Shown here piece after piece: positions 5,505-9,000 of a DNA stretch of 64,000 bases; within the stretch, counting starts at the first letter, position 1, and the number at the start of each line of letters is the position of its first letter. The translations under genes were made by a program, and so were the position numbers. The stretch lies in assembly GCA_000004985.1 (NCBI GenBank), contig GG738847.1, one strand, 5' to 3'. This DNA comes from Naegleria gruberi. Its lineage: Eukaryota. A model generated the notes under the pieces. It made no database searches and was not told the DNA's origin. It saw nothing but the letters and a program-made list of their open reading frames with translations.

Positions 5505-6567
5505 ATGAGTCAAATTGAAACAACAGAAAATCACTCAGTTGCAAATAAGGATCATCAAAAAAAAGCTAAGGAAAAACGTAGTAAGGAGGAGGAAGGAAAA
5601 TGTCTTCCTATCACGACAATTATCAAGTTAATAATTACCATATTTTTCTGGTTATTGTGTATTGGTATTTTCATTTGGTACGTGGTAGACAGTGTGGAAG
5701 TTTATTTGGTTGCCTTACCGGTAACTTCCATGTCGTACCAGAAGTATGAAAGTATTCCCTATCCAGCCGTAACAGTGTGTAACTTTAATGCTCTAATCGA
5801 TTGTACAACATGTGGTCTTTCCCTTCACAAAACTTATTCAGTGAATGCATCAACCGGAACACCAGAGGAGGCTACCATTCCAAACAAGTATGTGGAAATT
5901 GATGCTGGTGTTGGAGGATTATTCAGATGCATTACTTTCAACAATAATTCGGCACTTCATGCTGCTGAAGAAATTGGTTATTCGGGCTCATATTCTTTGT
6001 ATTTTCACGTTCCAAAGATGGCTACCGATAGAAATAATAGATACGGACTTCAAGTATCATTCCATGAACCAGGAACAACTCCTGATGTTTTTGCAGAGAC
6101 AAACTTTTGTTTGGAAGAGGCTGACAATAGCTTTGTTCTTAGTAAGGTTAGAACTCAGAGAGTGAAAGCCACAAAAGAAGAACCAAATTTAGAAAGTGTT
6201 AGATGGGTAAGTTGTTTCAAATAATTCAATAGCTTATAATTATAATAGTCATTTCAAAGATCTTCCATTGCCCTAGCAAAGAAAGTTGAAGGGCTCATTG
6301 TTATTTCCTTCTCTTATGGAACTTTGAATGAATCTAAAAATAAGGAAGTTAGAACTGCAACCATTGAAAAGATTCTGGGTGAAATCAGTGCTATCTTGGT
6401 AGCCTTAATGGTAAGTTTCAATTTTGAAATATTAAATATTAATGAATGAACATCTTTAGGGTATTGATGGTTTAAAGTTCTTCAATGCTGTCATTGAACT
6501 TGGATATTCATTTAAAAAGAAGACTTTGATGAATGTTTGGAAGATTTTCAACAAGGGAAGGTGGTAA
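5505..6567 (+). CDS. Compact DEG/ENaC/ASIC-like membrane protein, paralog A (about 323 aa). It has 3 exons at 5505..6206, 6249..6410 and 6460..6567, with introns of 42 and 49 nt.
   Basis: The ORF track gives exon 1, which ends ...VRW followed by gtaagt. Exons 2 and 3 were recovered by homology to paralog B (SSIALAKKVEGLIVISFSYGTL... and GIDGLKFFNAVIELGY...). TM1 (IIKLIITIFFWLLCIGIFIWYVV) is followed by YPAVTVCNFNA. The ectodomain carries YGLQVSFHEPGTTPDVFAETNF. A C-terminal hydrophobic segment LGEISAILVALMGIDGL follows. Confidence 0.75.
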
Positions 6568-6614
6568 AGGAACGAAGTAAATGGTTTAAAATATTATAAA
6601 TTGAAACTACTTTA

Positions 6615-7805
6615 TTAATTGAAAACCTCCCAAATTGGTCTCAATGATTTGTAAGGAATTGCAAATGGAATTTCAATGAAACCTCTAATAATCTTCATTA
6701 CATCCAATCCAGCCAACACACCAATAATTGCTCCAATTTCACCCAATACTGTTTCTATATTTGTTGATGACATTTCTTCAATTTCGTATTGGTTCAGAGT
6801 TGCATAAGCAAATGAGACAACAATGATATCTTCCTCTTGTTCAGTCAATCCAATCGAGGCCATGGATGCTTTCTAAATATGTTTCACAAAAATATTGAAT
6901 TATATGATTGGTAGTGAAAATAAACTTACCCATCTCATTTCTTCACCTTTTGATGTACTACTACTGCTTGAACTATCTCCCCCTGACGATTCTGCTGATC
7001 GAATTGAGTGCGTAGTTGTTGCTGATCCACTTTCACTTGAACTGCTTGATTCATGAGTATCTAAATATTTGGTGTGATACTTGGTAAGGATGAAGAAATT
7101 GTCCACTCCTGCCATGGCAAAATTAGTCTCCGAAAGAACATCAGGAACTGTGCCCTGTTTGTGAAAGGATATTTGTAATCCATACCTAGAGTAAGTGTTG
7201 GAAGGCATCTTTGGCACTTTAAAAAAGAGAGAATAGGAAGCTCCATATCCAGTTAGAGTAGCTTCTGGAATTGGATGATGAGTATCATTATTAATGACAA
7301 TGCAATGGAAATCACCAATCACAGTTGATTCATAATGAGTCTCATAATCAACAATGGATCCATTGTCTAATACTCTAGTTGCATGTTCCAAAGTGAGGCC
7401 ACAAGTATCGCAGTGTTTTAAGGCATTATAATTACAAACAGTAATGGCAGGAAAAGCCATCGGAATGTGTTCTACTAGAGAGAGTGCAGTTATTGGATTG
7501 TGTAAGGCATGAAGGTAATGATTCACCACATCATAAATAAACCATATTGTGAAACCAATAGCAGCAATCCAACACAGGAATATAATAATTTCCTTATATT
7601 TAATTCCAAGAGGTAATTTAGGAAATCCAAATCCATTCTTATCCCATTTCTTTCCTTCCTTTTTGACGGTATTGGTAGATGAAGGGACAACTTTGGTACT
7701 CGTCGATGATGACTTTACAGCATCCGTACTCTCTTGCAGGCTTGGAGGTAGAGAACTACCACCTTGTTGTTGATTCTCTTCCACCCTAGGAGAATCTAGA
7801 TTCAT
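6615..7805 (-). CDS. Compact DEG/ENaC/ASIC-like membrane protein, paralog B (about 377 aa). It has 2 exons at 7805..6930 and 6872..6615, with a 57-nt intron.
   Basis: ORFs 6900..7805 and 6615..6863 join through gtaagt...atttag. Key motifs are FPAITVCNYNALKHCDTCGLTL, YGLQISFHKQGTVPDVLSETNF, and a C-terminal LGEIGAIIGVLAGLDVMKII that resembles ASIC pre-TM2/TM2 [15 protein letters not shown]. Confidence 0.8.
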
Positions 7806-7941
7806 TTTTCTCTCAGCCTGTAAAAATTTTTTGATGATGCATCATTGAGGTGTGTAACGAACAACGTACTTGCTTGACATGGTGGGCCTTTGGATTTCTA
7901 CCTTATTGACGATAAAGAGGTCTCAAATTGAAGGAAAAAAA

Positions 7942-9000
7942 ATGTCGGCCAGCGTGGAGTTGAACGATGTTAATACATCGAATATTAAGCAAGAGAAAAA
8001 GAAGATCGAGGAACATCATGAGGTTACGAATCATCCTGTAGAGGGAGAACGAGGTGGTAATCATCATGGAGAAGATGAAGAATCGGAAGCTGATTGCTTA
8101 CACTCTAAGATTGGATACTCTATTAAGGATTTAATTCTTCTATGCCTTTGGTTCATTCTGGTAGGATTATATATTTGGTATCTTGTTGAATTGGCGATAA
8201 CAATTGATGAGGAATTAAACCATCCAACAACATCAGTCTCCTACGTTGAAAAGATTCCTAAGGATTTACCTCAAGTCACTGTGTGTAATTGGAATTCATA
8301 TTATGCTTGTGGTGAGAGATGTAATGTAACTCTAGTTGATTGTTCGGAAGTGGATTCTGAGGGAACTCCAATACCTTGTGTACATCATCCTCGGTTCATT
8401 CAATATGAAAAGAATGGTAACACTTTTCATTGTTATCAATATAATTATGATGAGCATCATCCTATTCAAGTTTCTAGGACTGGTTATGCGGGAAGTGTCT
8501 CATTGTACCTAAATTTCCCAACCATGCCTGAAACTGAGACCAATAGAAATGGCCTTCAGGTGACATTTAACAAAATTGGAGAGGAACCAAATGTTTTGGA
8601 TGAAACTAATTATGCCTATGAGAATGTAGATAATTTCTATGTCATGACACACGTTGTTGTGGAAACCTTGGCTAAGAATGATAATCATCAACCTGAATAT
8701 TGGGATTTATCCTATTCCAGAATTGGAACTGCTTCAATGGGTAATGTTACTGTAGTTTCATTCTGTTATGCTAGTTTGAATATCAATGATATTAAGGAAG
8801 TTCAAACTGTCACCAATATTGAAATTTTTGCCAAAGTTTGTGAAATGTTATTAATTCTCGTGGTAGGTTTTTAATTTATTATCAATAATACTTATAATTT
8901 GAAGGGTATCGACTTTATCAAGGTAATTAGAGGAATATTGCTCATTCCAGAAGCAATCAAATACAATGAATTCAAGGAAATTTTTGAAACTTTCATATAA
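7942..9000 (+). CDS. Compact DEG/ENaC/ASIC-like membrane protein, paralog C (about 338 aa). It has 2 exons at 7942..8862 and 8905..9000, with a 42-nt intron. An alternative upstream ATG lies at 7870.
   Basis: The ORF track gives 7870..8874. The start at 7942 is preferred because of its aaaaaaaATG context. The C-terminal exon GIDFIKVIRGILLIPEAIKYNEFKEIFETFI was found by paralog homology. Motifs are LPQVTVCNWNSYYACGERCNVTL and NGLQVTFNKIGEEPNVLDETNY. Confidence 0.7.

Follow-up and report, generated by a model that had tools for sequence, protein, structure and literature searches.

Does an amoeba encode DEG/ENaC-type ion channels, and if so, what is left of the canonical architecture? DEG/ENaC proteins are usually treated as an animal family, and recent phylogenies add no more than a handful of exceptions, heterokont and filasterean-related (PMC10507113, PMC9822975). 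The question is raised by a 64,000-nucleotide stretch of Naegleria gruberi contig GG738847.1 (assembly GCA_000004985.1), hereafter the window, which carries three paralogous genes, A, B and C, between positions 5505 and 9000. An original prediction, made from the sequence alone, read them as DEG/ENaC/ASIC-like channels with half-size ectodomains. The reading we prefer, with a probability of roughly three in four, is that these genes are old paralogues belonging to a compact, core-only DEG/ENaC subfamily and set in an N. gruberi subtelomere, and that their products are most likely channels.

Three spliced paralogues

Analysis of open reading frames (ORFs) combined with splice modelling resolves positions 5505–9000 into three intact, spliced paralogous genes, A (plus strand), B (minus strand) and C (plus strand). 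The unspliced frames stop abruptly at GTAAGT or GTAGGT, and removal of introns of 42–57 nt with GT..AG ends yields three complete proteins:

5505–6567, plus strand: gene A, exons 5505–6206, 6249–6410 and 6460–6567, stop codon 6565–6567, 323 residues
6207–6248 and 6411–6459, plus strand: introns of gene A in the splice model
6615–7805, minus strand: gene B, exons 7805–6930 and 6872–6615, stop codon 6617–6615, 377 residues
6929–6873, minus strand: intron of gene B in the splice model
7806–7941, no strand: spacer between the start codons of B and C, 136 bp by the gene coordinates
7942–9000, plus strand: gene C, exons 7942–8862 and 8905–9000, stop codon 8998–9000, 338 residues
8863–8904, plus strand: intron of gene C in the splice model

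The modelled product of A is identical to XP_002682191.1 (D2V012, NAEGRDRAFT_62132) and that of B to XP_002682380.1 (D2V013, NAEGRDRAFT_62133), both annotated in RefSeq and UniProt only as predicted or uncharacterised proteins, while the exact model of C has no entry in the protein collection. The splice model of B is confirmed by an intron-less relative (L003/P0004) that reads straight across the B splice junction, and the C-terminus of the C model agrees with the C-type relative P0021.

A tblastn search with B across the whole window recovers A (E 7.7e-48) and C (E 1.2e-43), everything else lying at E > 2, so that the predicted count of three paralogues is exact. A and B are 38% identical at the protein level, and C is 31–33% identical to either; identities of only 31–38% indicate that the duplications are old. 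C is indeed the most divergent copy, as had been proposed, both by these identities and by its loss of the LGEI motif described below. A and B are convergent, with stop codons 47 bp apart, and B and C are divergent, with start codons 136 bp apart. The arrangement had been called head-to-tail and inverted: the inversion is correct, but no adjacent pair is strictly head-to-tail. Given the divergent layout of B and C, the spacer at 7806–7941 presumably serves as their shared 5' regulatory region.

Intron positions are common to the paralogues (window positions 6207–6248, 6411–6459, 6873–6929 and 8863–8904; about 1247–1295 on locus L004). A, B and the B orthologue on L004 each have a phase-0 intron after a conserved RW, and A and C have a second phase-0 intron directly ahead of the codons for G-[LIV]-D. 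Database models of several relatives (P0016, P0020) run into this second intron and end truncated there.

Membership in the DEG/ENaC superfamily

Profile searches place the three proteins in the DEG/ENaC superfamily. With the Pfam ASC model (PF00858, gathering threshold 23.6 bits), A scores 34.4 and B 52.9 bits and C falls just below the cutoff, while 49 of 50 scanned family members match the same model (E ≤ 0.01, best 6.5e-22), in line with the original prediction. Searched alone, B aligns with ASIC1 chains (E 1.7e-6) over two colinear stretches, TM1/post-TM1 and pre-TM2/TM2 (TM1 and TM2 being the two transmembrane, TM, segments); the first pairs FPAITVCN with FPAVTLCN, and the second contains LGEIGAIIGVLAGLDVMKII on the B side. 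A profile built from 50 family members and searched against 177,635 sequences retrieves FaNaC (1.8e-18), ASIC1 (1.8e-16), ASIC5 (1.3e-15) and ENaC-gamma (5e-11), its matches to animal channels falling into three colinear stretches that cover TM1/beta1, the beta-ball plus palm, and beta12/TM2. Every match under E 0.1 is a DEG/ENaC protein, except for chains of PAC, which are considered separately below. Membership of A, B and C in the DEG/ENaC (ASC, PF00858) superfamily is thus supported. The conserved segments are located as follows:

5619–5687, plus strand: TM1 of A (residues 39–61), with an AlphaFold2 helix at residues 36–69
5760–5789, plus strand: post-TM1 signature of A, YPAVTVCNFN, with Cys92; aligns to ASIC1 FPAVTLCN
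7425–7454, minus strand: post-TM1 signature of B, FPAITVCNYN; aligns to ASIC1
8266–8295, plus strand: post-TM1 signature of C, LPQVTVCNWN, read from the translation
5922–5945, plus strand: FRCITFNN of A, with Cys142, the 'CYtFN' motif of DEG/ENaC; aligns to ASIC1 'gkCytFN'
6039–6107, plus strand: RYGLQVSFHEPGTTPDVFAETNF, the palm motif of A, matched in the alignment by 'aGikVqiHsqdepp' of ASIC1 and 'aGvrvvvHapGsmp' of FaNaC
6375–6477, plus strand: pre-TM2/TM2 of A; LGEISAILVALM closes exon 2, the phase-0 intron 6411–6459 follows, and GIDGLK opens exon 3
6693–6746, minus strand: pre-TM2/TM2 of B, LGEIGAIIGVLAGLDVMK (residues 335–352), aligned to ASIC1
8827–8922, plus strand: pre-TM2/TM2 of C; FAKVCEMLLILV, then the intron 8863–8904, then GIDFIK
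6951–7049, minus strand: Ser-rich low-complexity insert in the B ectodomain (residues 253–285, 33 residues), read from the translation

The post-TM1 signature is present in all three paralogues, as had been claimed. The two other motifs of the original prediction hold for A and B and fail in part for C: the palm motif, RYGLQISFHKQGTVPDVLSETNF in B and RNGLQVTFNKIGEEPNVLDETNY in C, reads NGLQ and FN in C instead of YGLQ and FH, and the pre-TM2 motif, LGEISAILVALMGID in A (LGEISA) and LGEIGAIIGVLAGLD in B (LGEIGA), lacks LGEI in C (FAKVCEMLLILVGID). Cys92 and Cys142 (A numbering) are invariant across the 50 family members. The corresponding pair, the TxCN cysteine and the 'CYxFN' cysteine, is present in A, B and C, and the two residues are the predicted partners of the first disulfide.

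The compact proteins share with animal DEG/ENaC/ASIC channels (ASIC1, ENaC, FaNaC, BASIC/ASIC5) the two-TM topology, the FPxxTxCN post-TM1 signature, the cysteine pair, the palm motif GLQVxFH and the pre-TM2 motif LLG[DE]IxG. They differ in having an ectodomain of about 200 residues instead of about 350–370, only about four conserved cysteines, no helical finger, thumb or knuckle, no His-Gly (HG) motif, and G-[LIV]-D plus a conserved lysine in place of GAS / G-x-S. Unlike these animal channels, they are encoded by a heterolobosean amoeba. Ectodomain length also varies within the cluster: it is about 205–215 residues in A and C and about 255 in B, owing to the Ser-rich insert. This insert may represent an O-glycosylated linker, and the metagenomic relative P0004 carries a longer Thr/Ser-rich insert at the same site.

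A core-only fold

An AlphaFold2 model of A, built with a 50-row alignment, has a mean predicted local distance difference test (pLDDT) score of 87.6 and a predicted template modelling (pTM) score of 0.74. In this model two TM helices, TM1 at residues 36–69 and TM2 at residues 273–308, flank one large extracellular domain of 11–12 beta strands (residues 73–268), and a short C-terminal helix follows. The modelled ectodomain has the palm plus beta-ball fold of DEG/ENaC and contains no helix. The finger, thumb and knuckle of the ASIC1 structure are reportedly helical; these peripheral domains are therefore missing in A, and the half-size ectodomain of the original prediction finds its explanation in their absence. 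The family-profile alignment points the same way, with ASIC1 residues ~107–199 and ~289–378 lacking a counterpart. As modelled, the compact ectodomain is the palm and beta-ball core of ASIC/ENaC only.

Foldseek comparison of the A model returns PAC (ASOR, TMEM206) chains at the top (E 1.8e-13, TMt 0.60–0.66), with PAC almost fully covered, and ASIC1a close behind (E 2.8e-12, TMq 0.59–0.62, TMt 0.44–0.48). By this coverage, the half-size ectodomain amounts to a core-only DEG/ENaC fold in the same size class as PAC. Structural-comparison values by chain are:

ENaC-gamma: 19.1
ASIC1: 18.0 (259 residues aligned)
Other ENaC, FaNaC, ASIC5 and PDPNaC1 chains: 14.8–16.9
PAC: 14.6 and 13.8
First unrelated chain: 7.2

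For the monomer, then, ASIC, ENaC and PAC chains are the closest folds, and the outcome that had been named as fatal to the prediction, an unrelated fold, is refuted. A model of C exon 1 from a six-row alignment (AlphaFold) reached a pLDDT of only 56, gave no significant Foldseek matches and was not relied on.

A distinctive candidate pore segment

No segment is conserved more strongly among the 50 members than the TM2 region, whose consensus is L-[LF]-G(88%)-[DE](84%)-x-A-G(82%)-M-x-G(88%)-x-L-x-G(98%)-[LIV]-D(80%)-x-[LI]-K(84%)-x-x-R-G. Its first part aligns to the ASIC 'Deg' glycine and the Asp433-type outer gate. Relative to the outer-gate segment LLG[DE]IGG, B reads LGEIGA and A reads LGEISA, and C lacks the motif. 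Further along, a conserved lysine stands three residues beyond the G-[LIV]-D that occupies the GAS belt position. In the HMMER alignment to ASIC1, G289-I290-D291 of A takes the GAS belt position and K294 is the family-conserved lysine. In B, G336-E337 corresponds to the ASIC 'Deg' glycine and aspartate, G347-L348-D349 lies at the GAS position and K352 is the conserved lysine. C has lost the G-[DE]-I-x-G gate motif (FAKVCE) and kept G-I-D-x-x-K, and the same loss is seen in the C-type relatives P0017 and P0021. Since these two proteins, which come from other organisms, retain the unusual pre-TM2 segment of C, C is a conserved subtype rather than a copy in decay.

A sequence link to PAC/TMEM206

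PAC is described as conserved in vertebrates, and its resemblance to ASIC/ENaC has been put down to 'structural convergence', sequence homology not being discernible (PMC7904269); a 2023 review likewise describes PAC as not homologous to ASIC/ENaC (PMC10378246). The compact family bears on this view. Like the compact proteins, PAC (~350 residues) has a minimal beta core between two TM helices, as in the A model; the two also share colinear profile similarity from TM1 to TM2 (HMMER 34–41 bits, E 1e-7 to 9e-10) and a TM1–beta1 linker of the form 'HPxxSVSYxE'. The 50-member profile matches Xenopus PAC at 9e-10 and human PAC at 1.2e-7. The human chain, whose query sequence is identical to PDB 7jna_A at 350 of 350 positions, scores 34.1 bits in two colinear stretches, TM1–beta1 and beta12–TM2; in TM1–beta1, the family consensus 'kasPstsvsyeeqdplefPaV' is aligned to PAC LKHPVMSVSYKEVDRYDAPGI. 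Among 2000 control sequences made by window-shuffling PAC the highest score is 7.9 bits, and the PAC sequence read in reverse scores -0.7. An hhalign comparison of the family with PAC spans 232 columns from TM1 to TM2 (E 7e-6) at 84.5% probability, a moderate value computed against a single PAC sequence and not a deep PAC profile. Taken together, the profile, shuffle-control and hhalign results make the compact family a plausible sequence bridge between PAC and ASIC/ENaC.

The link is asymmetric. The N-terminal third of the family profile matches PAC about as well as ASIC, whereas the beta12–TM2 third alone matches ASIC (8e-6) and not PAC, even at E ≤ 10; the compact TM2 region is thus ASIC-like, not PAC-like. 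The TMEM206 Pfam model (PF15122), on which human PAC itself scores 564 bits, matches none of the 50 compact members even at E ≤ 10, and human PAC in turn has no match to the Pfam ASC model at the same limit. The helix-turn-helix insertion of PAC (PMC7904269) has no counterpart in the A model. A search with PAC in the large database retrieved only exon-sized vertebrate fragments. A shared histidine before the post-TM1 proline was considered as a PAC-like proton sensor, equivalent to PAC His98, and dropped, His98 not being the primary proton sensor (Wang et al. 2022).

A broader scenario is offered tentatively, and we would rate it somewhat short of even odds. PAC/TMEM206 would be a divergent DEG/ENaC member and not a product of structural convergence, with the compact Naegleria-type proteins supplying the missing link in sequence, and the core-only architecture, two TM helices and a 12-strand beta domain, would be ancestral and pre-animal, the finger, thumb and knuckle having been added later in ASIC/ENaC. 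Under this scenario G-[LIV]-D-x-x-K would constitute a third solution to selectivity beside GAS (Na+) and the PAC lysine (Cl-). The core-only architecture itself may be ancestral-like or a secondary reduction; these data fit both.

A compact family whose named members are Naegleria proteins

A HMMER search run exhaustively over 1.84 billion representatives (clusters at 50% identity) recovers 133 of them at E ≤ 1e-3; 76 pass E ≤ 1e-10, which puts the compact family at 76 clusters or more. Strong matches are nearly all 280–400 residues long, and the weak tail consists of canonical animal DEG/ENaC proteins of 450–1000 residues. All named family members are from Naegleria, and the remaining clusters are unnamed metagenome proteins. 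The Naegleria relatives are:

N. gruberi: D2V6F8, D2V6F9, D2V787, D2VC18 and the fused model P0003, at least five further loci
N. fowleri: FDP41_006660 and FDP41_006661, adjacent genes
N. lovaniensis: C9374_010561

These other Naegleria genes lie on other scaffolds, are all uncharacterised and are 30–45% identical to A, B and C, with the same compact architecture and motifs; several occur in adjacent pairs. D2V6F8 and D2V6F9 neighbour P0003 on the same scaffold, which gives N. gruberi a second cluster of the family. P0003 (492 residues, on a 665-kb scaffold) is a public model that wrongly fuses two tandem compact ASC genes, the first copy lacking its N-terminus and the second its C-terminus.

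Selection can be gauged for B. Compared with an orthologue at 68% protein identity, B gives a nonsynonymous divergence (dN) of 0.16 and a synonymous divergence (dS) of 1.19, and the resulting dN/dS of 0.13 places the gene under purifying selection. Window positions 6803–8513 are matched by a metagenome contig at 98.4% DNA identity. A scan of metagenome loci yielded three short loci with no useful synteny.

A pattern search for related loci found no viral relatives of the compact family. The lone bacterial match, 'NRNGLQISFHHIG' in Methylobacillus methanolivorans (L006, 3073–3618), runs antisense to an aldehyde dehydrogenase gene and was set aside as chance. Homologues in Cafeteria (Heterokonta) and Tunicaraptor (Elkhatib et al. 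2023, PMC10507113) are likewise DEG/ENaC genes outside animals, with a similarly patchy distribution.

Weighing the alternatives

Several observations weigh against reading A, B and C as channels of the DEG/ENaC type. The GAS / G-x-S filter is absent, the aligned position reading GID in A and C and GLD in B, and conserved K and R residues, unusual in a cation pore, follow G-x-D. Before TM1, HG is missing from A and B, and the sole HG of C sits in an acidic low-complexity run ~22 residues upstream of TM1 and is not conserved in C-type relatives. C scores 22.1 bits with the Pfam ASC model, just under the threshold, and has also lost the outer-gate motif. Finally, the structural evidence is a monomer prediction, not an experimental structure. 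Because both the GAS / G-x-S filter and HG are absent, ion selectivity and amiloride sensitivity are not transferable from animal channels, and amiloride-sensitive Na+ conduction by A, B or C should not be assumed. A, B and C might then be PAC-like anion channels, or channels that are not Na+-selective and are functionally nearer PAC. The structural and profile matches described above point in that direction, PAC heading the Foldseek results and hhalign running from TM1 through TM2, as do the compact core and the missing GAS filter. So does the conserved lysine in the inner half of TM2, given that TMEM206 has a conserved lysine near the cytoplasmic end of its inner helix that is presumed to be the Cl- filter (PMC7904269). 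The family lysine, however, lies two residues off K319 of human PAC, the inner-helix residue linked to anion selectivity, in a weak 8-bit stretch of the HMMER alignment; the beta12–TM2 third of the profile recognises ASIC and not PAC; none of the 50 members matches the TMEM206 model; and the conserved aspartate at the filter position, together with the ASIC-like G-[DE]-I-x-G gate, favours cations. We consider PAC-like anion conduction, or another selectivity not for Na+, unlikely, though it is the strongest of the competing explanations.

A role without a pore, in which A, B and C would be receptors, adhesins or auxiliary subunits reusing the core fold, with C perhaps a non-conducting modulatory subunit, is less probable again. 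It would accommodate the missing gate motif and sub-threshold score of C, the mucin-like Ser-rich insert of B and the absence of a conserved pre-TM1 HG motif in all three proteins. Against it, TM2 is the best-conserved part of 50 distant members, its four glycines (82–98%), aspartate (80%) and lysine (84%) forming a pore-helix pattern, and every characterised protein with this fold, whether DEG/ENaC or PAC, works as a trimeric channel. That the genes are subtelomeric pseudogenes in decay, or came recently from an animal by transfer or contamination, might be suspected from the position of the cluster 5.5–9 kb from the telomere and from the usual view of DEG/ENaC as an animal family (PMC10507113). 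That suspicion is very hard to sustain: all three genes have intact frames and canonical short introns, at positions common to the paralogues; the dN/dS of B is low; the paralogues are divergent enough to reflect old duplications; three Naegleria species carry relatives, N. gruberi at several loci; the genes on either side match N. gruberi genes exactly, on a 941-kb scaffold; and the profile search reaches animal channels only in its weak tail. Chance motif matches on a fold unrelated to DEG/ENaC, an idea with no point in its favour, are already refuted. Gene-model, host, family and structure data together thus exclude decay, contamination and chance resemblance, and leave old paralogues of a core-only DEG/ENaC subfamily as the best explanation.

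Proposed mechanism and significance

As a core-only DEG/ENaC protein, each of A, B and C runs from a cytosolic N-terminal tail through TM1, an all-beta ectodomain about 200 residues long and TM2 to a short C-terminal tail. By homology, the subunits most likely form trimers, either homomeric or mixed from A, B and C, with TM2 probably lining a central pore. The outer gate would be the conserved G-[DE]-I-A-G segment, as the matching segment is in ASIC. With no acidic pocket or thumb, gating must presumably act directly on the beta core and would be transmitted straight from it, as in the similarly sized PAC channel. Channel activity and any physiological role are likewise inferred.

The A and B genes are not new to databases, where they already stand as uncharacterised RefSeq/UniProt entries. 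An ENaC/degenerin homologue in N. gruberi was reportedly noted in a 2011 study. Within the accessible literature that mentions both 'ENaC' and 'Naegleria', no article describes the A, B and C genes, and the core-only architecture, the size of the compact family, the G-x-D-x-x-K pore motif and the sequence link to PAC appear to be undescribed. The Naegleria core-only family represents the smallest natural DEG/ENaC scaffold on which requirements for assembly, gating and selectivity can be tested, and it supplies a sequence-level argument for common ancestry of PAC/TMEM206 and ASIC/ENaC. The amoeboflagellate genus Naegleria counts the pathogen N. fowleri, with its two adjacent homologues, among its species, and proteins of the A/B/C type are candidate sensors of ions or pH in this genus.

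Host and chromosomal context

Of ten ORFs of the window that were compared, seven reproduce Naegleria gruberi NEG-M proteins exactly, from a 941,567-bp scaffold (XP_002682203/204/206 and XP_002682384/386/389/391; UniProt D2V024–D2V039). This bears out the assumption of a non-animal host and refutes a metazoan donor. The chromosome end is marked by one feature:

1–330, no strand: telomere repeat array (CCCAAA)n, placing the A-B-C cluster 5.5–9 kb from the chromosome end

Degenerate CCTAAAAA-type units follow the array, to about position 377 (window 1–377). The window therefore begins at a chromosome end, and the cluster is truly subtelomeric, as its label in the original prediction had implied.

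A low-GC region (23–28% guanine plus cytosine) at positions 20000–26000 includes an 869-residue ORF (22742–25351) with a fungal-type Zn2Cys6 domain. This gene had been taken as a clue to a non-animal host; it belongs to Naegleria and not to a fungus. On the plus strand, a 1510-residue ORF (29889–34421) encodes TPR and PAS domains and an adenylate/guanylate cyclase domain of which the first third is present. It ends within the cyclase domain, the gene probably continues past an intron, and the exact product is not on record. Two ORFs of more than 250 residues overlap on opposite strands at 44730–45494 (minus) and 44752–45546 (plus), of which at most one is likely to be real.

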